The notes: a model not told the origin generated them from the letters alone. 64,000 bases of DNA from Oscarella lobularis (GCF_947507565.1 NC_089192.1:982690-1046689), one strand, 5' to 3'; positions 9,071-58,607 are shown, counted from the first letter of the stretch. Made by a program: numbers and translations.

Positions 9071-12045
9071 TTAGATAAATTTGAAACATTTAGTTCTGTC
9101 CGAGGGTATCCTCGTCTTAAAAAGAATCGAATCGGCGCGAAATTGCGTGTAGAGTAGCGGCATGTAGCCGTAGACTTTAACGAAGTAATTAATGCATTCG
9201 TGACGTTCCTCGAAATGGCTGTTGTCGCCGGACAAGGCCTCCGGACAGCCGGGGCAGCGGAAAGTCCACCGCGAAGTAACCTAGAAATAAGATTAAAAGA
9301 GTTTCCGTTAAGAGGGTGACTCCCTTACCTTTACGGGCGGCTTTCGCGTGACGTGCGACACGAGAAAGTTCATTGCTATGTCCTCGCAGTTCATGTACTC
9401 GTCGACCTTGTCGCGTATCGATTGCGACATGGTATACGAGTAAAGATACATGTAGTACTGGGGGGGAGAAAGTCGAGCATTATTAGACAGACACTCCTTA
9501 GTTTGTCTTACCTTATGGAAAAACGCGGCACCGGTTAGTACCATTGACATTTCGCACGAATAATTCGCGTTGTAGTTCCACCTGCCTGGATGGCGTGCGT
9601 CCCACGCGTGAAACCGTCCCGGAAATCCGACGATGCGATCCTTATTCTCCCTCCAGACGCTGTTCGAAATAAGAGCCACAATAGTTGCAGTCAAGGCCCT
9701 CGCGAGAATTTTGTACCGCACCGAAAAGCAAGTTGAATTTCGTCGTGCCTTAAATGGGCGTCATCATCCATCGATAGTACGGCCTCCGTTTCGATTTTAT
9801 CGAACGGCAGGAAGCGATTGTTCAAACTGTTCTTCCCCGTCGTAATAACCTAGATAGAGGTATTGAACTGGGGGTGTATAAGCAACAGGCGAGACTCCTT
9901 TGCACTTACGTGTATTGGAATGCCAATGTTGGGCCATTCCATGTTGGCCGGCGGCGGTTGCGGATTGTTCCACACAACGACGATCGTGCGCAAGTACTGC
10001 AAATTCCGGAGCCGCTCCAGCGCCGCGGTCAGCACCAAATTGCGATCGAACGTCAACATGACAATCGTGAACTGTTCGTCCGGCACGTTGCCGGCGAGAA
10101 GAACGTCGAATTCGGGCCCATTCAAAGGCCCTCCGTCGCGAACTGTTCGGTGAAGATTCTTTCCTCGCCCGGGCCCCATGTACTGAAACCCCGAAGGCAG
10201 AGCGGAAACGAACGGCGTCACGGACGGCATCCCAACCAGCGCCCCAGGCGAATCGTTCCACGCATCGTAACTATTCAGCGTGAAATTTTTCTGAAATCGC
10301 GGCGACGGCGCTTCCACTGCTGCCACGCCACCCGCAGCCTCTCCGAACGGCGACGTTTCGCCGTCGGCAAACACGCCGACGGTGCGCGCTTCCGCGACGA
10401 CGTTCGGCGGCAAACCGATCCGCGTTCGCACGACGGCGACGACGCTATCGACGACGCGCGTCGCCGATCCGAAGTACGTCTCCCAGACGAAGCGTCCGCG
10501 TCGACGCATATCCAAGACGTCGCCTTCGGCGACGGCGCGAAGAAAGAAATTCAACTCGGTCGCTCGCGCGTCGGCGAGACGAAACGCAACGCGACTCCAA
10601 TCGAGTACGTCGTCGAAGGGAAGTCGAACGTCGCCAACGACGATGGGAACGGCGCCGGCGCGAAGCGATTCGACGAGACGCGCGTGCGTCGTCGTTTCTC
10701 CACCACCGAGAATGAGAGCGAATGTAGACGAAGATAAAGAGGCGACTCGTTGCGACGACGTTCCGCAGAGATGCCACTCGCCTGGACGCGCGACGACGGT
10801 GGCGTCTTTCGGCGCCGTCCGCGTGCATTCGGTTGCGACGACGAGTTCTTCGTTGTCGTGCGCTCGAATCGACGCCAGGTCGGCCGGCGTCGTTGCTAGC
10901 GACAACGGTTGCCGTGCGGGAGGATTCCACTCGCCGCGAAAGTAGATTAGGTAGCGTCGAAAGGCGGGAAGCTGGCGAGGCGGCGGCGGGAGTGGCGACG
11001 ACGAGGAGAACATCGCGATGGGCGGCGCGACGACGTCGAATCCACGCCGATGGCGCGGATTGGAGTGACGAGCGACGATCGCGCGACCGACGTTGTCGGG
11101 AAAGTTGTCCGTCGTCGTCGAATTGGTCACGTCGACGAGCAGGTGATTGCGACCGTCGCCGCGCCAATGGGCGAGCGACTTGAACGCGTTCTCGTCCCAC
11201 TGACGTCGTCGACTATCAACGAGAACGAGATAGAGGCACGCTCGATTTGGATTCGACGTGTAATAGGGAGCCAATTTGATGTGCAAGGCAAGACGTCGAA
11301 GCAACGCTGACTCGTCCGTCGCGGACCCCTCGTCGTACAAATGCACGGCAAATGGAGTCGTAAGAGAACAGCGCGAGAAATCGAAGCACGTCAAAAGCCG
11401 ACACGCCCCCGCCATTCTCTCGCCCGGAAACGGCACAGGAACCGCCGCGGCGTCTTGTGACGTCACCCCCGGCACAATGACTCGCTTCGGCGGTACGGCT
11501 TCGACGAGACGAACTCCTCCCCGACTCTCATCCGGGGATCGTTTCGCGACGACGACGACGTCATTCTCGACGCCGCCGCCGCCGCCTCGTTGAGAAGCGA
11601 GGCGACGAAGATCGGCGCGCGTCGCCTGGAGTTCGGCTTTCGCTTTGGCGACGTCGTGCGCGAGCGCGTTGCGTCGGCTCTTCGTCTCTTCGAGTCGCGA
11701 CGCCGCCGTTTGGGTCGCCTGTTGAATCGACTGGCGACGGCGCTCGAGATCGCGTACGTCGTTGCGTACGGCGTCGCGAAGTCGTTCGAGTTCGGCGATG
11801 CGACGCTTGAGCGACGCGCCGTCGTTTTCGTCTTCCAGCGTGCGCACTTGGGGTTTTAGGTGAACGACGGCGAAGTTTCCGTCGTCGTCGTCGCTCGCCG
11901 CGCCGTCGTCGACGTTCTTTGGGGTCGCCGGAAGGTTTAGAAGCACGCCGATGGGTACGAAGACGCCGACGACGAATAGGAGACCGAGCATCGGCCGCAG
12001 TGAGAGCCTGCGATGAAGTTGACGGAGAACACTGCGAAGAACCAT
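9071..12045 (-). CDS. Exostosin-family glycosyltransferase, EXTL3-like. It has an N-terminal TM anchor, a coiled coil, an exostosin GT47 domain and a GT64 domain. There is a large 5' exon (9850-12045) plus 3' exons.
   Basis: Minus ORF 9850..12045 begins [36 protein letters not shown] (signal anchor). It continues with a coiled coil and [41 protein letters not shown] (start of GT64). Minus ORF 9308..9721 adds [38 protein letters not shown] and [20 protein letters not shown]. The terminal exon ends ...TKCFKFI* near 9071. Confidence 0.8.
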
Positions 12046-22903: not shown

Positions 22904-25865
22904 ATGAGCGGAGGCAGCAAACGTCTCAACCGCTATACATTCGATCCCGATCGGCCCCAACTCCAGGCACCGGACAGCGACGAAATGAATCCCCTCCTCG
23001 GCTCGCAGCAGAGCGGCGCTGCGCCGACGATGACGAGCAAGGGAATGTTTCGCATGTTCGCTTGCTCGTTTATCGCAACGATCGGCTCGCTGATCTTCGG
23101 CTATTGTCTCGGATTCTCGTCGCCGGCACTCGTCGATCCGTTGCTGGTCAAGGACATACTGGGCGAGTCGGCGCAGAATTGGTTTAGCGTAAGAACACAC
23201 GCGAATCGCAGCCACGGCGCGATTTTCCTAAGATATCGTCCATGCCACGCCCTCGTGTTGTAACACGTACTGCACATAGGTGTAGAGATTTCTTTGTTGT
23301 TGAACTCTAAACATAGAGAGGTGTACGTACTCGTACAACTATTAGTAAGAGTGTTACCAATACTTTTAGTAAGTGTTTAGTGGGAGGTATCAAAATTTGC
23401 CCCATGCTTGTTCTTCCAATCAAATTATTTTCTTGGATACAAATCTTATATTTTCTCTCGCAGTCTATTATCAATATTGGTGCTGCCATTGGCGGGGTTT
23501 CCACGTCGGCTATCGCCGTCAAATTCGGTCGCAAAGGAACGATTATGTTCGCCGGGCTACCGTATGCGATCGGCTGGCTGCTTGTTCTCCTTCCCGCCTA
23601 TCTGCACACGCTGGACGGCGTGTCCAACTCTCTTCTCGTGTCACTTCTTCTCGTTGGTCGCGCCCTATCAGGCGCCGGACTTGGTATAGCGTCTGGCATC
23701 ATTTCGGTGAGTGAAAGCAAATCATTCATTTCAGATGATCCCCCCTTAGTAGTTTGTACCCTGGGTGCATGAGCAGTTCTGAGTCAGACGCAAGTAGCAT
23801 AGGCACTTCATTTTATATGCAAAGGCTACTGAGATTAGATCTCAATAATGTAACATACAGGTGCTAGTTCATAATATTAATATTATTTATTTTGCGTCTT
23901 CTAGATCTACATTTCTGAAATAGCGACTCCCGCGTATCGCGGTTTCCTCGGCACATGCTTTCAACTCTCCGTCACGATAGGCCTTCTCCTATCCTACCTC
24001 TTGGGTCGTGAGCTCGCCCACTATCCGTGGCTGGCGACGGTCGCTCTCGTCCTCACGGCGAGTCTCGTCGTTCTCGGCCTTTGGATTCCCGAGAGTCCTC
24101 GCGCACTTCTCCTCAAGAATCGTCCCGACGAGGCGCGTCGCAGTCTCGAGTGGCTCCGCGGCGGCCCGGGCGTCGACGTCGGTCGCGAGTTGCAAGACAT
24201 CGAGAAGACCCTCATGGATCAGGAGCCTTTTGCCTTGGGCGAATTGTCGAAGCCGACCATATGGAAGCCGTTCGCCGTCGCCTTGGGTCTCATGTTCTTT
24301 CAGCAATTCTCCGGAATCAATGCCGTCGCTTTCTACGCGAGCGTCATCTTCGACGGCGTCGGCTCGTCATTTCAGGAGAAGAACGGTCCACTTATCATAG
24401 CCGTCGATCAGGTATATTAATTAATTAATTACTCGCAGGGTCCATAAGTAATTTTAGTAGAAATAATCTCACAAGGTCCATGAGTTATTTTAATAGAAAT
24501 AATCTCATTCTGTAGAAAATTACTCATAGGGTCCATGAGTACATTTTCTAGAGATAGTAATGGCAGGAAGAAAAAATTCTATTTTCCCTTAGCAGTCGGA
24601 CGCTGCCATTGACCACGCCATTATTATGCACGAGTGGTGTTCCTTGCGCCTGAACCGCAAGCGCCGCTCGCGCGCAACGAGTTAGACACTTACCTCTCAA
24701 AAGTGGGCGTTCCCGCCATCGCTACACTGTAACTTTTTATGCGCGAGTGGCGTTCCATGCGCCTGAACCGCAAGCGCCGCTCGCGCGCAACGAGTTAGAG
24801 ACACTTACCCCTCAAAAGTGGGCGTTCCCGCCATCGCTACACTGTAACTTTTTATGCGCGAGTGGCGTTCCATGCGCCTGAACCGCAAGCGCCGCTCGCG
24901 CGCAACGAGTTAGAGACACTTACCCCTCAAAAGTGGGCGTTCCCGCCACATCGCTACACTGTACTTTTTATGGGCGAGTGGCGTTCCTTGCGCCTGAACC
25001 GCAAGCGCGGCTTGCGCGCAACAACTTGCAGACACTTGTTGATCAAAAGTGGGCATTCCCGTCAACGCTATATTATGCTTTTTAATTGGATGCATTTTAC
25101 TAGAAATAATCTCAAGAAAATTACTCACAGGGTCCATGAGTAATTTTACTAGAAATAATCTCAAGGAAATTACTCACAGGGTCCACGAGTAATCTCATAG
25201 AAAATTACTCACAGGGTATCTATGGGTAATTTTACCTGAAATTTTCTCATAGAAAATTAATAACTTAAAAATAATGTAGTAGAACCATCCAGCGTGTTTA
25301 TTTTATTTCATATCTTTTTTTTTCCTTACCAAAGGTTGTTGCCACTGCTATCGCCGCTCTGGTTATGGATAAGCTGGGTCGACGAAAACTCCTCGTTCTC
25401 TCTGGAACACTCCAGTGTCTAAGCATCGTCGCGCTTGGCGTCTTCTTCCAAGTCAATCACTGCCTGAACGTGAAGGAGCCATCCGATTCACCCTGTACGT
25501 CGTCGCCCGAAGTCGGTCCGCTTTCCCTCGTCGCTCTCATCGTCTACATGACGGGCTTCTCGTTCGGCTGGGGCGCCATACCGTGGCTCCTCATGTCGGA
25601 GATATTGCCGTCGAAGGCGCGAACCATTGCCGGCGGCGTGTGCACGTTCTTCGTCTGGATGTGCTCCTTTGCTGTGACGTACATGTTCAATTCGTTGACG
25701 AAGTTGATTCACAAGAACGGCACGTTTTATTTCTTCGGCGGCTGGGCGTTCGCTTCCGTCATCTTCGTGCTGCTGTTCGTGCCGGAAACGAAAGGAAAGA
25801 CGCTGGAGGACATCGAAATGTACTTTGAACGTGGCAATAAAAGAGCAATCAATGACGATTCGTAA
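22904..25865 (+). CDS. Major-facilitator sugar transporter, Tret1/GLUT8-like. It has 4 coding exons (22904-23190, ~23463-23706, ~23905-24416, ~25334-25865) and a large third intron full of repeats.
   Basis: MFACSFIATIGSLIFGYCLGFSSPALVDPL. LLVGRALSGAGLGIASGIIS. IYISEIATPAYRGFLGTCFQLSVTIGLLLSYLLG. PESPRALLLKNRPDEARRSLEWLRG. FFQQFSGINAVAFYASVIF. Exon 4 has the GWGAIPWLLMSEILPSKARTIAGG and PETKGKTLEDIEMYFE sugar-porter signatures. Confidence 0.85.
24425..24560. repeat. Intronic tandem repeat with a unit of about 42 bp and 3 copies (attactca[c/t]agggtccatgagta[a/c]ttttactagaaataatctca).
   Basis: Direct reading. The same unit recurs at 25095-25260. Confidence 0.8.
24600..25085. repeat. Intronic tandem repeat of about 122 bp with 4 copies, the last one degenerate. 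Core is gcgagtggcgttcc[a/t]tgcgcctgaaccgcaagcgccgctcgcgcgcaacgagttagagacacttacccctcaaaagtgggcgttcccgcca(ca)tcgctacactgtaactttttat.
   Basis: Direct reading. Units start near 24600, 24725, 24845 and 24965. Confidence 0.85.
25095..25260. repeat. Second block of the 42-bp intronic tandem repeat, about 4 copies, in the same orientation as the 24425 block.
   Basis: Direct reading. Confidence 0.8.
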
Positions 25866-33533: not shown

Positions 33534-34535
33534 GTTTTGGTTTTCTAATGAGATGTTTTTGATCTTTTCACACCCGCTTGCAGGTAGCTAAGCAACGACG
33601 GCGACGTGACGTTTTCTTGCAGAATGGCGTTTCTTGAGGTTTTGTTTCATAGGCGCTCTGTTTCAAACGACCGGTTGCTAGGGTGCATGAAAGCGAAAGC
33701 TTTTCATGTAGACTAAAAATGATATGAATGTGTTGGGGTGCGTGGGAATGGTGTGGAGGGGGAGGAAGCAGGAAAAACAAGCGCTAGATGGTCCCCAAAA
33801 AGAGGCCTCGTCTTACAACTCGGTTAAGAATCCTTGGAAATCGTAAAGAACAAGGAGGAAACGTCGAACAAGACGCCCCGCGACCAGTTCCATCCTTCGA
33901 AAAATCGATAGATCGAAGCATGCGCGCAGTGAGCCTCGATCGTGTTTAGATCTCGATCTTAGACTCCCGCAAGGCTCAATCAAATCGTCCTCGTCTTCTT
34001 GTCGCTTCGAAAAGCGGCAATTTCTCGTGGCGTTCCTCGAATGTGAAATTTCGAAAGCGAAAGCGAATGGGAAGACCCTGTAGAGAAAAGAAATGCATCT
34101 AAACGTTAGATTCCTCTTCGGAATACGAAAAACGTCATCGACCACGAGGAGCCGCCATTATTCTAGCGCCAAAATCAGCCACGGTACGATACCGTAAAGA
34201 GTACGTGGAAAATTGGCCCGAGCTTTCTCGACGAACCAGCGACTCGTTGCCCCGGTGAATCGAAGACAATGCGGTCACCAACGGATATTGCACCTGCTTT
34301 CGTATAAAAGCCGCTGCGCCATGCGCACAACTTCAGTCCTGGTTAGGTGGGGAAAGCCAACGGGCGGAACCCTGGAGGTCGTCGGCGTCGGGAAAGCCTC
34401 GGTCATGTCAACATTAATCGTGCTCAGTCGGTTGCCGTTCCTTGCTGAAGCTGTGAGGTGCAGTGGATGAGCGTCGCGCGAGTTCTTCTCGTGGCGCGCG
34501 ATCGGCACTGGGAAAGTCACTAAGGGCTCGTTGGA

Positions 34536-34845
34536 TTTCATATATTGAGAAAAACAGTATAAGAGAAGAACAGAGAGACAGGGAACAACAGCAAAGGACG
34601 AAAAACAACAACAGCTAAAACATAAATACATACAAGGGAGGGGTTAATGGGTATTGGAATTGCAGCGTGTGCTAGCCACCGCCGCTGGATTTCATATATT
34701 GAGAAAAACAGTATAAGAGAAGAACAGAGAGACAGGGAACAACAGCAAAGGACGAAAAACAACAACAGCTAAAACATAAATACATACAAGGGAGGGGTTA
34801 ATGGGTATTGGAATTGCAGCGTGTGCTAGCCACCGCCGCAAGACT
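34536..34845. repeat. Tandem repeat with a 154-bp unit, 2 full copies plus a partial leading copy from about 34470.
   Basis: 34536-34689 and 34690-34843 are near-identical (ggatttcatatattgagaaaaacagtataagagaagaacagagagacagggaacaacagcaaaggacgaaaaacaacaacagctaaaacataaatacatacaagggaggggttaatgggtattggaattgcagcgtgtgctagccaccgccgc). Confidence 0.9.
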
Positions 34846-52521: not shown

Positions 52522-52812
52522 GGGCAGTGTTTAGAAGATCGTTTGCGACTCGCTTCTCTCTTTCCTCTTTTCACAAAACCCGGATAACACGGGGTGAAAG
52601 GGCGTGTTTACGTGCATGCGAACCCGCCTCACTTTTCGCAGAACGTTTGGTAGGCTGTTTGTCTGCAAGTGTTTGCATATCTTTCCACTTTTAGGGCCAA
52701 TGTCTTTAGGTGCACAGTAGCAAAAAACACGAAACGTTTAGGCTAGATGCGGACAACAGTACGGCGGGTTTAGCAACGAAACTACAAAAAAATTGATTTG
52801 TTGCGAAATTGA

Positions 52813-54190
52813 TTAGCGTGCAAAAACATAGCCTATAGAAAAGACGTTTTTATTTCCATTGTCAGTAGTACTGCAAGCGGCTTGATTGCCGCAGGAATTT
52901 GAACGGAAGTTTATTCCACATTGTCCACCTTTCCGACCTCCTATTCCAATCCATGAATCAGCAGAGCCGCAGTCATATTGATTGTTTGATATTATTCCAA
53001 TTCGAACTTGCACAGCAACACTTTCGTCTCCCTTCACATTGAATCCCTCCTGTTTAGTTAAGATTTAGCTAAACATTCTTAATTTGGTCTAAACTCGTAC
53101 TCTGTTGCAGTTTGCTTGAAGAGAAGAACCGTGGATTAGGCTCTTCCAAGCACTGCGTCCTATTGAGGTCGAGTGGTATACGTTAGACGTTATGATGTGT
53201 CTCAACGAAGCCGCCCTCTTGTGCAAGGTCACCCAATTTGTCTCGTGGTTTGTTTTTAAACCAATAAGAACTTCTTTAAACGGTAGTGTCCAGAAGGAAG
53301 CCAGTTTAGCTTCGTTGTGGTCCAGATGAACGGAATCCTCGTTGTATGACGATGTCGTCGTCCACAAGGAGCTGTAGTAGTCAAACGTTTGCCTAGCACC
53401 GTTGACTTTCATTATAAGGGTCCACCCGCCTTCCTTGCAGTAAACCTATTCCGAACGTAGTAAAGATAGGTTCTGTGAGACGAGATCGTAGTTGTACCCT
53501 ATAAGCTGGATAGTTGGCTGACGGTTGGATCCAATAAACGCCCGGCTTGTAGCCGGCCAGTTTACTTAGATCTAGGCACGACGACGCTGGTTGAGCTTTG
53601 GATCCTCCGAGACTGCTAGTGGCATGTTCAGTCAGAAGAGAAATCCACTCCTTTCCATTGCAATATTGAATGACGTCGTCTATCGCGTTGTATTGCACTG
53701 ATCCTGCAAAAACGATATTTTGCGTTGTTTGCGTTTGATTTTGCCTTTGCTGGTGGTTAGTACCTGCATTTGGCACTGAACATGCCTCGTCAATATATTG
53801 CAGTTTCTGGGGTCCTGGACTACCTACAAGTCAACGGTTCACTGCAATTATATCACTTAGTTAATTAATTATTAATCACCCGCAGGTCCGGTGTCTCCTT
53901 TTTGGCCATTAGTTCCTGGCAAGCCGTGTCGTCCAGGTATGCCTGGTATGCCTAATCAAAAGATTAAATTTTCAGTGCAATTGCCAAATCAATGCATTAC
54001 CTGGGTTGCACTGACAGTCGCAAGAGACTTTGTCGTTCTAAACAGAGAAAAAAACAAAAAAACAATTTGATTGTGTCAATTATAGTAGCTGCATGCTGGA
54101 TCTTTCTGTTCCACCTTAGAAGTTTCAAGGGCTACGCTTTTAGCAGAAGTCCATACAATAGCGGCGACAAACAAAGTGATTATTTTCATT
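52813..54190 (-). CDS. Secreted short collagen plus C-terminal globular domain (fibrinogen-related / ficolin-like, divergent), copy A. It has a signal peptide, a short Gly-X-Y run and a domain of about 300 aa, in about 6 exons.
   Basis: MKIITLFVAAIVWTSA (signal). GIPGIPGRHGLPGTNGQKGDTGPAG (reverse complement of 53885-53950). SSCLDLSKLAGYKPGVYWIQPSANYPAYR | VYCKEGGWTLIMKVNGARQTFDYYSSLW resembles the FReD core (C.DL...G..SG.Y.I.P......VYC....GGWT..Q.R.DGS..F...W). The C-terminal half (CGINFRSNSCGNQAAC...NVFSIGYVFAR*) does not match canonical FReD or COLFI. Confidence 0.55.
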
Positions 54191-54379
54191 GAACACAATA
54201 TTGCCAGTTGTTGTGGCAGTTGCATGGAGCTCTTATATAAGTATCCAGAAAAATACGGAATGACGCATAAAGTAGGGACGACTACGGTTAATCTACGGGT
54301 GCGACTTCAAACCGTCGGTATAGTACGGCGGTCCCGCCGGTTCCGCCGGGGGTCGCCCGCGCATTTCGTAGTCCCGGAC

Positions 54380-54660
54380 ATGAAAGTCAGCGCTTCGTCT
54401 CGTCGGAGTATTCCGATTCCGACGTTCGCGACACGACGCACGACTTTCGTCGCGTTTCGCAAAACGTCCATTTGTCGTTCCACCCGCTCGAAGCGCCGCG
54501 CGAGCACCAGCGCGCGTCGAACGCGACGAAATTGGAACGCGTGTTCGCGAAGCCGTTCGTCGGCGATCTGGGCGCGCACGCCGACGGAATGTACGCACTG
54601 GCAAAATATCCGTCGCGTCTTTCGCGTCTCGCCTCGGGCTCAGGCAGCGTAAGGGAGGAG
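54380..54660 (+). pseudogene. Decayed duplicate of DCAF13 exon 1. The start region is frameshifted and the exon end is altered. It was copied along with collagen-FReD copy A.
   Basis: 54380-54660 aligns to 56528-56805 at roughly 85% identity. It retains LHPLEAPREHQRASNATKLERVFAKPFVGDLGAHADGMYALAKYPSRLSRLASGSG. The region after the ATG carries an indel (atgaaagtcagcgcttcgtctcgtcgg versus atgaaagtcaaagttctctctcgtcgc) that shifts the frame. No downstream DCAF13 exons follow it. Confidence 0.7.
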
Positions 54661-54748
54661 GAGGTATATTGTGAACAACAAACAAACACACAAACAAACA
54701 GAGACGGACAACACTGCGCGCAGTTCATCCATGAAGCTACAACATTGA

Positions 54749-56176
54749 TTAGCGTGCAAAAACATAGCCTATAGAAAAGACGTTTTTATTTCTATTGTCA
54801 GGAGTGCAAGCAGCTTGATTGCCGCAGGAATTTGAACGAAAGTTTACGCCGCATTGTCCTTGGAACAAATTCCGACCTCCTATTCCAAGCCACGAATCTG
54901 CGCTTTTGCAGTCATTTTCATTGTTTGAAAATATTCCAATTCGAACCCCTACGGCCGACTCTTCCTTCACATTGAATCCTTCCTGTTGGGTAAAGAATTA
55001 GTTAAACAATTTTTTTTAATTTTTTTTCTAAATGCGTCGTACTCTGTTGCAGTTCGGTTGAAGAGACGAGCCGTCAATGAGACTCTTCCAAGCACTGCGT
55101 CCTATTGAGGTCGAGTGGTATATGCCAGACGCTATGACGTGTCTCAACGAACTCGCACTCTTGCGAAAGGTCACCCAGTTCGTCTCGCCATTTGTTTTCA
55201 GACCGACAAGAACTTCGTTAAACGGTAGCGTCCAGAAGGAAGCCAGTTTAGCTTCGTTGTCGTCCAAATAAACGGAATCCTCATTATAAGAGAAACTATT
55301 CTTCCAGAAAGAGCTGTCGTAGTGAAAGGTCTGCTTAGCACCGTCGACTTTCATTATAAGAGTCCATCCGCCTTCCTTGCAGTAAACCTATTCTGTACGT
55401 TAGGATAGACTCGAAGATGAGAGGTCAGATTTTGTACCCTGTAAGCTGAGCGGTGGGCTGAAGGTTTGATCCAGTAAACGCCTGGCTTGTAGCCAGCCAG
55501 TTTACTTAGAGCTAGGCACGACGACGCTGGGTTAGCTTTGGATTCTCCGAGAGTGCTAGTCGCATGTTCGGTCAGAAGAGAAATCCACTCCTGTCCGTTG
55601 CAGTATTGAACGACGTCGTCTATCGCGTTGTATCGCACTGATCCTGTAAGAACGATCTTGTTGCCTTTGTCTGTCGCCTTTGCTGGTTGCTAATTACGTA
55701 CCTGTATTTGGCACTGAGCATGCTTCGATATATTGCAGTTTCTGCGGTCCTGGGCTTCCTGCAAAAAAATGCTGTACAGTTAGATAGGCTAACGTATGGG
55801 CTAATAGCTAAAGTACCCTTTGGACCAGCGGGTCCTGTGTCCCCTTTTGGACCAGGTGTGCCTATATCAAAAGAATAAATTTTTCAGTGAAACTGTTAAA
55901 TCAATACATTACTTGAGCGGCAGCGACATAAAGGGTCAATCTAGAAAAAAGAAAAATAGTTAGAGATCATGATTGTGATCATGATCATGAAATGAAGATT
56001 ATCATGGTCTATTAATTGTGATAGGAGTAGCAAAAATAAACTAATAGCTCTGCCGTACTGTTGCTCTGTTAGATGTGGCGACTTTTAGCTACCTGGTATG
56101 CTTCAACGTGTTCGCCTTGAGATGATGTCCAAACGACAACCACAGCAACCAAGGTGATCACTCTCAATGAACGCAT
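54749..56176 (-). CDS. Secreted short collagen plus fibrinogen-related-like protein, copy B, a tandem paralog of copy A.
   Basis: MRSLRVITLVAVVVVWTSSQG (signal). MRYNAIDDVVQYCNGQEWISLLTEHATSTLGESKANPASSCLALSKLAGYKPGVYWIKPSAHRSAYRV. MKVDGAKQTFHYDSSFWKNSFSYNEDSVYLDDNEAKLASFWTLPFNEVLVGLKTNGETNWVTFRKSASSLRHVIASGIYHSTSIGRSAWKSLIDGSSLQPNCN. ...CGVNFRSNSCGNQAACTPDNRNKNVFSIGYVFAR*. Confidence 0.55.
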
Positions 56177-56527
56177 TTTCGGTGAGGCAGGTTTACTGCA
56201 GCTGGCCTTGAATTGCGGCTTTTATAGCTAGAGTGGCGCTGTGTACTGATCATGCACTTCCTGCTGGTCTCTCCTACTTCCTACTTCCTTTACACTTGGT
56301 GTCGCATAGGAAGCAAGCCGGGGTCACGTCCTACTTACCTGCAAACCAGTGGTCACAGATAAAAGTTTGGGTGTGAGATAAATTAATTAATTGGGCTTTT
56401 TTCTTATGAGCACCCACTTAGTAAATCGTGCCAACAAAAACTGCAGAGGACAACAACTAAAAAATTTTTTCTCGGATCAACGGCACCGGCCAGAGCCTGG
56501 GCACCGCAGTGTGCTTTCCCGGATAAA

Positions 56528-58607
56528 GCATGAAAGTCAAAGTTCTCTCTCGTCGCCTCGCCGATTCGGGCGTTCGCGACACGACGCACGACCTTCGTCG
56601 CATTCCGCGAAACGTCGATCCGTCGCTCCATCCGCTCGAGGCGCCGCGCGAGTACCAGCGCGCGTTGAACGCGACGAAATTGGAGCGCGTGTTCGCGAAG
56701 CCGTTCGTCGGCGATCTAAGCGCGCACGCCGACGGCGTATACGCAATGGCAAAAGACCCGACGCGTCTGTCGCGTCTCGCTTCGGGATCATGCGACGGAC
56801 AGGTAAAATAAAATTAGAAAAGCGTAGCACGCCCACACTGTACGCATCTAGATTTGCATCTGGAGTCTTTCAAAACGTCAATGCGAGCACCAAATTAATG
56901 CGCATAGGTACAGCAGCGCGTTCCTTCGATAGATAGACCTGAAATTATTTTTCAGGGGATTTGTCAGAGGACTCTGTTTCAATCACACGGGATCTTCTCT
57001 TCTATCGGTATACACTGTTGCACGTTCTCAGGGGTTCTTTATGTGCTTGCCTATATATAATAACATAGATTGGCGACGATCAAATCATCAAGTTGTGGCC
57101 AATGGACGCCGACTTCGACGATTCCAAAGTCGTCGCCCAGCCATCGAATACGATACTAGGAAGCGTAAGGGTGGAGAAAGGCTTGGATTTTGTTTTAAGG
57201 AAAAAGGCGTGTGGTCTAGGCTATGTTCAATGGAATTGATCATCATTGGTCGAAGAGCGTCTTTGCTACGTGCAGCACCCAGGTGGACGTTTGGGATGAA
57301 GAGAGGTCGGAGCCAATTCGATCTTTCACGTGGGGAAGCGAGACGACGACGAGCGTCCGATTTAATCCCGTCGAAGTATGTAGACGTGAAATGGGCAATA
57401 ATATAGATTCATTAATTCATTGGTGGGATTTTTGATAGAGAAATGTTCTAGCAAGCACTGGATCGGACAGGACAATTGCATTGTACGATATCAGAGGAGC
57501 GACTCCTCTCAAAAAAGTGCAGAGGAGAAATTTTTTTCGTATTAGAGAAATCAATATTAGTGTTTCTTTAGGTAGTACTAGAAATGAGGACTAATTCAAT
57601 CTGCTGGAATCCAATGGAGGTAAGGGGGAAGAGAGACAGACGTGGAGTATTTTTAATAGATGAATCACTTTGCTAGGCTTTTAATTTTACTGCAGCCAAC
57701 GAAGATACAAAGTACACAAAGGTTGTCTCTTCCCCAATGCATCACCTACTATTTTCGCTAGTCTGTACACGTTCGATATGAGACGTCTCGACCGGGCTCT
57801 GAACGTGCACAAGGATCACGTAATGGCAGGCAAGTGAAAAGAAAAAAATTGAGATAAAATTTCAAAGATGACGTGAAACTTTTTTCATTTTTATAGTCCT
57901 GGACTGCGACTATTCGCCAACGGGTAGGGAATTCGTTTCAGGCAGCTACGATAAGACAATACGAATATTTCCTTTTGACAAGGGACACAGTCGGTGAGTA
58001 TAGATAATAATTAATTTTTTATTTACACATATGGTTTGGTTTTATTAGAGAGGTCTATCACACGAAACGAATGCAGAGGGTCTTTTGCGTTCGTTGGAGT
58101 GCCGACAGTCGATTTATCTATTCAGGAAGCGAGGAAACTAATATCAGGTTAGCAGTAGGCTGCAATGTTGTATATAATATTTCAATTATTTCCTTCTACA
58201 GGATTTGGAAGGCTGATGCTTCAGAGAGACTTGGACCTGTATAGGAAACATATAAGTCATTGTAGGCCAAGAGACAATGTTTTTCTTTTCTAGATATCTG
58301 CACGGCAGAAAATATCCAAAAATTACGGAAACAAACTGAAAGAGAAGTTCAAAGATCATCCACAGATTCGAAGAATTTCCAAGTGCTGTCTTCTCCATTC
58401 CTCAAAGTAACCTTGAGAAATGTATTTCTTCCTTTTCTTAGACATCGTCACGTGCCCAAGCTCATTTATAAGCAGACGAAAGAGAGACGAGAAATGCTCA
58501 AGGCGAGACGGCGAAAGGAGGAGAACGTTCGACTTCACACGAAGCCTGAAAATCAGCCAGAGCGGACGGCCGAAAGGAAGAAACCCATTGTTTCGACTCT
58601 ATCTTAA
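56528..58607 (+). CDS. DCAF13: DDB1- and CUL4-associated factor 13 (Sof1 family WD40 protein), in about 11 exons.
   Basis: MKVKVLSRRLADSGVRDTTHDLRRIPRNVDPSLHPLEAPREYQRALNATKLERVFAKPFVGDLSAHADGVYAMAKDPTRLSRLASGSCDGQ. IDHHWSKSVFATCSTQVDVWDEERSEPIRSFTWGSETTTSVRFNPVE. TIALYDIRGATPLKKV. LYTFDMRRLDRALNVHKDHVMA. VLDCDYSPTGREFVSGSYDKTIRIFPFDKGHSR. EVYHTKRMQRVFCVRWSADSRFIYSGSEETNIR. The Sof1 C-terminus reads RHVPKLIYKQTKERREMLKARRRKEENVRLHTKPENQPERTAERKKPIVSTLS*. Confidence 0.9.

Follow-up and report, generated by a model that had tools for sequence, protein, structure and literature searches.

Here we describe a tandem duplication in the homoscleromorph sponge Oscarella lobularis, contained in 64,000 nucleotides (nt) of one strand of its genome (GCF_947507565.1, NC_089192.1:982690-1046689; this whole stretch is hereafter the window, and all positions are counted from its first letter). 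At the locus lie the housekeeping gene DCAF13 and two paralogous genes, A (proximal) and B (distal), which encode lectin-like proteins with a short collagen stalk. A and B stand in tandem on the minus strand with a period of about 1.94 kb, and each is head-to-head with a copy of DCAF13 exon 1, the distal copy belonging to the functional gene and the proximal copy appearing as a relic (Table 1). The tandem duplication, its period and the two minus-strand paralogues had been proposed in an initial annotation of the window, and they are borne out here by direct repeats, by alignment of the two units and by seven-exon models of both genes.

Table 1. Features of the duplicated locus, in window coordinates.
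Feature	Position	Strand	Description	Basis
Duplication unit, copy 1	52710-54665 (approximate limits)			Repeat, alignment and junction homology
Duplication unit, copy 2	54671-56810 (approximate limits)			Junction 54671-54743 homologous to 52710-52807
Gene A (proximal), coding sequence	52813-54189	-	ATG to stop, 343 amino acids (aa)	Gene model
Gene A, exons	54115-54189, 54001-54037, 53880-53951, 53764-53823, 53498-53703, 53101-53445, 52813-53049	-
TATA-like box of A	54234-54239	-	TATATA, starting 50 nt upstream of the ATG of A
Intergenic region, A to relic exon	54190-54379		190 bp; GC 0.53; CpG observed/expected ratio (o/e) 1.45
Relic (proximal) DCAF13 exon 1	54380-54648	+	269 nt; donor GTAAGG, its GT at 54649-54650
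Gene B (distal), coding sequence	54749-56176	-	332 aa	Gene model
Gene B, exons	56093-56176, 55913-55940, 55817-55861, 55702-55758, 55438-55643, 55043-55387, 54749-54982	-
TATA-like box of B	56221-56226	-	TATAAA, starting 50 nt upstream of the ATG of B
Intergenic region, B to live DCAF13	56177-56529		353 bp; GC 0.47; CpG o/e 0.61
Functional (distal) DCAF13 exon 1	56530-56802	+	273 nt, 91 codons; donor GTAAAA
Remaining DCAF13 exons	56852-58607	+	Exon 2 from 56852; stop TAA 58605-58607

Positions 56530-58607 hold a full-length orthologue of DCAF13 (Sof1). A model built by hand from the ATG at 56530 is identical at 446 of 449 residues to a deposited protein, P0121, named 'DDB1- and CUL4-associated factor 13-like [Oscarella lobularis]', and the three mismatches all fall at splice junctions that had been guessed. 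Identity to the animal DCAF13 proteins listed is about 57-62%, and the precomputed domains of P0121 include Sof1 (PF04158) and WD40. The annotated protein uses the distal exon 1, and the exons at 56852-58607 were found behind the distal copy only, as the initial annotation had it.

Genes A and B have seven exons each, with intact open reading frames (ORFs) and introns bounded by GT and AG, and their products are 72% identical. The two proteins share one layout: a signal peptide, a cysteine cluster (CDCQC in A, CRC in B), a run of G-X-Y repeats, a short neck that contains cysteine, and a globular domain some 220 aa long. The translations show 10 uninterrupted triplets in A and 6 in B, and because this run is so short the Pfam Collagen model stays below its cut-off of 27.2 bits in both (23.6 bits for A, 14.9 bits for B). 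Intron 1 differs in length between the genes (77 nt in A, 152 nt in B). The models leave B at the coordinates first given to it and shorten A by a single position, its end having been set at 54190. A 40-mer common to both genes, 'cgtgcaaaaacatagcc...', had been placed beyond the boundary of the unit; it is in fact their last 13 codons, the proteins ending in ..NKNVFSIGYVFAR followed by the stop. A translated search (tblastn) with A and B found no third copy of the collagen-like gene in the window.

The rates at which A and B have diverged suggest that both are maintained. Across the globular part, synonymous divergence (dS) is 0.34 and non-synonymous divergence (dN) 0.11, a dN/dS of 0.33, with non-synonymous changes under-represented (Fisher p = 5e-8). 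The best match to the two proteins in the protein collection, P0001, is an O. lobularis paralogue on another scaffold, 55% identical over the full length; with P0001 as outgroup, a relative-rate test counts 21 unique changes in A and 17 in B (p = 0.63). Both genes are thus under purifying selection and evolve at equal rates, neither degenerating faster than the other. All 30 invariant columns of an alignment of A, B and eight members of the family described below are present in A and in B, although in this ten-sequence alignment A and B themselves help to define invariance. We infer from these sequence comparisons that both genes are functional.

The limits of the duplication can be read from the repeats. 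At a spacing of 1933-1942 nt, positions 52808-54016 match 54744-55928 at 71-97% identity. A second repeat, spaced by 2148 nt, pairs 54413-54645 with 56561-56793, the cores of the two DCAF13 exon 1 copies; it is 88% identical over 233 nt, somewhat closer than the roughly 85% first estimated. A base-by-base global alignment of the two units returns the same picture. On the left, weak homology continues past the stop codons of the collagen-like genes for about 75-100 nt (52710-52807 against 54671-54743), with a local score of 46 where shuffled sequences gave 22.5 +/- 4.1 and none of 300 scored as high. On the right, homology stops at most about 20 nt from the boundary between DCAF13 exon 1 and intron 1, and similarity between the junction and intron 1 was sought and none was found. 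The breakpoint would accordingly lie 0-20 nt inside DCAF13 intron 1, at about 54650-54670 at the junction, and it is because of this position, within about 20 nt of the exon boundary, that exactly one exon was copied together with its splice donor. Taken together, the limits look like the footprint of a single, simple tandem duplication.

The proximal DCAF13 exon carries the marks of a sequence released from coding constraint. Its ATG at 54380 is followed, within the first ~44 nt, by a net gain of 2 nt relative to the live copy, which puts the conserved core out of frame, and there is no ATG in the DCAF13 frame between the upstream stop and that core. At its 3' end, a deletion of 6 nt before the donor removes two codons of the conserved SGSCDG motif. 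Both lesions, the frameshifting indel just past the ATG and the altered 3' end, had been noticed in the initial annotation. The relic ATG opens a 90-codon, out-of-frame, arginine-rich ORF, the TAA of which (54650-54652) overlaps the splice donor; splicing from this frame would enter exon 2 in phase 2, whereas phase 0 is needed. Behind the relic exon lies the 3' end of gene B, and no downstream DCAF13 exons of its own.

The pattern of substitution points the same way. Over a 222-nt in-frame core, relic and live exons differ at 26 positions, divided 13:3:10 by codon position, with a dS of 0.20, a dN of 0.104 and a dN/dS of 0.52; these are the rates expected if one lineage evolved neutrally, contributing about 0.10 to both classes of change, and the other changed only synonymously. 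Which lineage this was is suggested by eight outgroup DCAF13 proteins (from cnidarians, a calcareous sponge, a placozoan, a brachiopod, an echinoderm and human). When the 14 amino-acid differences were polarised by these outgroups, 11 favoured the live residue and two the relic (p = 0.022). At seven sites the live residue is carried by at least seven of the eight outgroups, and the sites of five relic replacements, R27Q, D30H, P31L, L33F and Y42H, are invariant in all eight. Because of the frameshift, the replaced conserved residues and the 3' deletion, the capacity of the relic to encode DCAF13 has been lost. By homology, lesion, relaxed constraint and the lack of downstream exons of its own, 54380-54648 is classed as a pseudo-exon, the partial, unprocessed duplicate of a functional gene, and the 'dead exon' first proposed holds at the coding level. 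A 32-mer common to both exon 1 copies had no match in a scan of metagenome contigs.

CpG dinucleotides are abundant in both copies, where o/e reaches 2.0 (52 CpGs in the relic, 55 in the live exon). The ratio exceeds 1 in all 4-kb bins of the window (1.12-1.65), and with values high throughout and the two exons so alike, the region shows no CpG decay of the methylation type.

The two ATG-to-ATG distances, 190 and 353 bp, agree with the separation of roughly 200-350 bp reported earlier, and the divergent genes have the geometry of a bidirectional pair (<1 kb). The earlier proposal that a bidirectional-promoter pair was duplicated stands as far as the head-to-head unit is concerned and is weakened for the promoter DNA itself: the two intergenic regions cannot be aligned, their global identity (42%) equalling that of shuffled sequence and their best local score lying below the shuffle mean. 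Their sole likeness is the TATA-like box at -50. Duplication of the promoter unit is thus suggested by the flanking genes, the promoter DNA no longer aligning. The region between B and DCAF13 also holds three copies of ACTTCC (56256-61, 56276-81 and 56283-88) and an inverted GGAAGC (56309-14), which we take to be ETS-type GGAA cores; no exact ACTTCC was seen by eye in 54190-54379. Such ETS-type cores are frequent in bidirectional housekeeping promoters.

The globular domain proved the least familiar part of A and B. A homology search with A returned 228 matches at E <= 1e-3, many of them named USOMP5 or USOMP5-like after the 'uncharacterized skeletal organic matrix protein 5' of the coral Acropora millepora. 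Members of this family occur in corals, octocorals, Nematostella and sponges, and in myxobacteria as 'fibrinogen-like YCDxxxxGGGW' proteins. The likeness to these cnidarian, sponge and bacterial relatives spans the whole ~220-aa domain (35-48% identity, E ~1e-36 to 1e-51), with a pattern of invariant motifs in common: GGWTL..K..G, LQ.NCN.EGFN, RIG...N...C...DS.IG.G, NSCGN and DNG. It argues firmly for membership of A and B in the USOMP5-like family. In A and B the domain is joined to a signal peptide, a cysteine cluster and a collagen stalk, whereas most relatives carry EGF, PAN or TSP1 modules or none; among the matches listed, three of 120 have a Collagen Pfam domain.

This domain had earlier been called ambiguous, its N-terminal half resembling a fibrinogen-related domain (FReD) and its cysteine-rich C-terminal half resembling neither FReD nor COLFI, the fibrillar-collagen domain. 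Our searches agree, the FReD likeness being one of profiles, and the Pfam check that had been proposed left both Fibrinogen_C and COLFI below cut-off. Fibrinogen_C (PF00147) does not match A at E <= 1; on B it reaches 17.0 bits where 22 are required, the match being confined to residues 122-181 (positions 13-77 of the 221 in the profile), and neither protein reaches the gathering score over the ~220-aa domain. COLFI (PF01410) scores 17.7 bits, also below its cut-off, and GGGWT_bact 23.1 bits against 30. No single-sequence match of the globular domain to Pfam or NCBIfam reaches its cut-off, and all are limited to the first 40-60 residues; a single-sequence search of A against PDB sequences returned collagen repeats only. 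Of 65 family members, 25 have a weak Fibrinogen_C match, nine a COLFI match and one a GON match; the family therefore has no Pfam model of its own. We rejected a GON identity (one of 65 members, E 0.006) and also COLFI, on its Pfam score and on a fold that is not closest to COLFI.

Profile and structural comparisons suggest where the domain belongs. Against PDB, the family profile matched lamprey serum lectin (1.3e-11), which we count with the intelectins, then XEEL (1.8e-9) and intelectin-1 (4.7e-9), with fibrinogen beta and gamma at about 6e-9 to 7e-9 and procollagen C-propeptides only weakly. All these matches end after about 50-70 residues and cover the N-terminal subdomain only, the FReD similarity consisting of 'SC...GVY...YCDM..GGGWT' there. 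A structural model of P0001 has a predicted local distance difference test score (pLDDT) above 90 across the domain, and a Foldseek search with it agrees with an intelectin-like fold, at modest template-modelling (TM) scores of 0.38-0.48. As modelled, the P0001 fold is closest to intelectin, an intelectin-like variant of the FReD fold, and the domain forms a separate branch of the fibrinogen-related superfamily, resembling intelectin in its second half.

We consider it likely, and hold the view with some confidence, that a tandem duplication at this locus kept both lectin-like genes while the spare exon 1 of DCAF13 decayed. Some 2 kb would have been duplicated in tandem, with one breakpoint about 100 nt past the stop codon of the secreted, collagen-stalked gene and the other just within intron 1 of the divergent DCAF13; unequal exchange or replication slippage may have been the mechanism. 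The outcome would have been a complete A and a complete B, each with its own upstream region, plus a spare DCAF13 first exon with no exons behind it. Being redundant, this exon would have drifted, acquiring the frameshift after its ATG and radical replacements at residues invariant across animals. DCAF13 would have gone on being expressed from the distal exon 1, and purifying selection would have retained both lectin-like genes. Their products are predicted to be secreted and probably trimerise, with the cysteine cluster at the mature N-terminus followed by a collagen helix and a USOMP5-like head. We infer expression, trimerisation and ligand binding for both. Architecture and fold make a secreted trimer the most likely product, linked by disulfides and binding glycans or components of the matrix; the binding is suggested by the ficolin-like design.

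Several observations weigh against this account or parts of it. The six triplets of B are short for a stable triple helix, and the structure modelled was that of P0001, which has the same architecture, and not that of A or B. In a collection of 5.8 billion protein sequences, which includes the neighbouring DCAF13 at 99%, no match to A or B exceeds 59% identity; the deposited O. lobularis annotation may lack both genes, or they may be poorly expressed. The relic has kept its ATG, a stop-free DCAF13 frame and a consensus-like donor. Finally, divergence is uneven along the unit: the intergenic regions cannot be aligned, dS is ~1.3 in exons 1-3 of A and B, 0.34 in the globular part and 0.20 in the DCAF13 exon, and introns are at 51-88% identity. 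Such unevenness is not what one clean event predicts, unless gene conversion or a faster turnover in the middle of the unit followed.

This unevenness gives some purchase to the most serious alternative, that the duplication is older than a dS of 0.2-0.34 implies. Patches of it (the globular exons, the DCAF13 exon 1 core and the last 62 nt of the collagen-like genes) would have been homogenised by gene conversion, and the decay of the relic would be dated from the last conversion. Besides the range from random-level intergenic similarity to the dS of 0.20 in the exon 1 core, two local contrasts favour it. The relic has diverged significantly more over its first ~44 nt than over its core (13 of 42 positions mismatched against 28 of 233, p = 0.004), and 52808-52869 is 97% identical to 54744-54805, where identity elsewhere is 84-89%. 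This last stretch takes in the final 13 codons and the stop, with 5 nt beyond it, and A and B show no synonymous difference over their last 16 codons. It may be a small conversion tract, or it may be under an additional constraint, 3'-end processing for example. Read on the mRNA strand, it contains the hexamer AATAAA some 40 nt ahead of the stop codon. Yet selective constraint, together with indel-prone, low-complexity sequence in the collagen repeats and promoter, can produce the same unevenness; the contrast between a dS of 0.20 and one of 0.34 rests on 10 synonymous differences; and the perfect run of ~49 nt is marginal (P ~0.08, an informal estimate from 86% identity). Part of the unevenness could be put down to fast indel turnover in the promoter and collagen repeats, and the rest to patchy gene conversion. 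We regard redating by conversion as possible and on the unlikely side. Either way it would bear on the dating of the duplication and leave the nature of the structure as described.

A second alternative, which we think improbable, keeps the proximal exon alive, either as an alternative first exon of DCAF13, largely non-coding or truncating the protein at its N-terminus, or as the start of a transcript that regulates B. In such a DCAF13 transcript, 54648 would be joined to 56852, the start of exon 2, and the intron would span the antisense gene B. The signals for it are partly in place: beyond the preserved ATG, the GTAAGG donor is nearer to consensus than the GTAAAA of the live exon, the 3' deletion of 6 nt is in frame, the stop-free DCAF13 frame would join exon 2 in phase 0 and contains an internal methionine ('DGMYALA'), and the upstream region is rich in GC and CpG. 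However, the ATG is 2 nt out of frame with no in-frame ATG upstream, and a product begun at the internal methionine would lack about 70 conserved N-terminal residues. The seven replaced residues conserved in at least seven of the eight outgroups, and a dN/dS that fits neutrality, also tell against it, as does the single close O. lobularis DCAF13 match in the collection, P0121, which uses the distal exon. Nor is the open frame strong evidence, since the exon is 62% GC and CpG-rich and all three frames are largely open.

We give slightly less credence still to exaptation of the relic, in which a housekeeping-type promoter would drive a transcript antisense through B into exon 2, or the relic would encode the new 90-codon arginine-rich ORF (54380-54652) that the frameshift created. 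If this were true, an antisense transcript from the relic would couple or repress the expression of B, and the exapted relic would be a regulatory or de novo coding innovation caught in the act. An origin of the two copies in the assembly, from separate haplotypes or a mis-joined repeat, had been named in the initial annotation as a possible refutation; nothing was found in its favour, and we rejected it as very improbable indeed: the copies differ by about 12-16% in their exons and by many indels, the lengths of their introns and the numbers of their collagen triplets differ, their intergenic regions cannot be aligned, there are no runs of N in the window, and both ORFs are independently intact and constrained.

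If the locus arose by simple tandem duplication followed by decay of the spare exon, as we prefer, it can be set beside several known systems. Partial unprocessed duplicates in general resemble the relic in the position of its boundary, its missing downstream exons, its frameshift and its neutral-like substitution; nothing essential differs, and only the breakpoint at most ~20 nt from an exon boundary is particular. Ficolins share with A and B the architecture of a collagen-like stalk and a fibrinogen-related head, although the head here is not a canonical Fibrinogen_C and the stalk, at 6-10 triplets, is much shorter; convergent domain shuffling is the simplest explanation of the resemblance. 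Intelectins and other X-type lectins (human intelectin-1, Xenopus XEEL, lamprey serum lectin) are similar in sequence over the N-terminal ~50-70 residues only, at the TM-scores given above, and vertebrate intelectins are not known to have a collagen stalk. USOMP-5 occurs in the coral skeletal proteome (PMC3748352), and its name tells us no more than that a relative of A and B is occluded in skeleton. In the literature we found it only as a coral skeletal protein, uncharacterised and with its sequence incomplete, and we found nothing on this Oscarella locus. Oscarella is not known to have a mineral skeleton, and for this reason a role in biomineralisation is not transferable to A and B.

Elsewhere, the window begins in a 41-bp satellite (consensus TTAGGCCCTTAGAATCAAAGTTTAGGCCCTCAATTTTATAT; 46 tandem copies over 1-1882, reaching the window start, 84% match, GC 0.32), which may be a scaffold-end or subtelomeric repeat. 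A CpG-rich 115-bp unit is repeated 3.9 times at 24624-25070 (91% match), flanked by two-copy repeats of 36 bp (24432-24507) and 49 bp (25094-25193). At 34532-34839 a 154-bp unit is duplicated in tandem with 100% identity, the result of either a very recent event or an assembly stutter. On the minus strand, 9850-12045 is an uninterrupted ORF of 731 aa, in which an Exostosin GT47 domain (E 1e-26) is accompanied by the beginning of a GT64 domain; the part of the window where this EXT-like glycosyltransferase gene lies is its richest in GC (0.63).

The duplication is a new instance of a well-known process, and A and B are new members of a known, uncharacterised protein family; current understanding is not overturned. 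What the locus offers is a clean, datable example of the fate of by-catch in tandem duplication, in which a complete gene is kept twice and its partial neighbour decays. A and B may merit addition to the O. lobularis annotation. They place a collagen-stalked, intelectin-like or USOMP5-like head in a homoscleromorph sponge, and show that the domain known from coral 'skeletal matrix protein 5' is not confined to biomineralisation. The combination would be relevant to the early-animal domain shuffling behind collagen-stalked lectins of the ficolin, collectin and C1q types.

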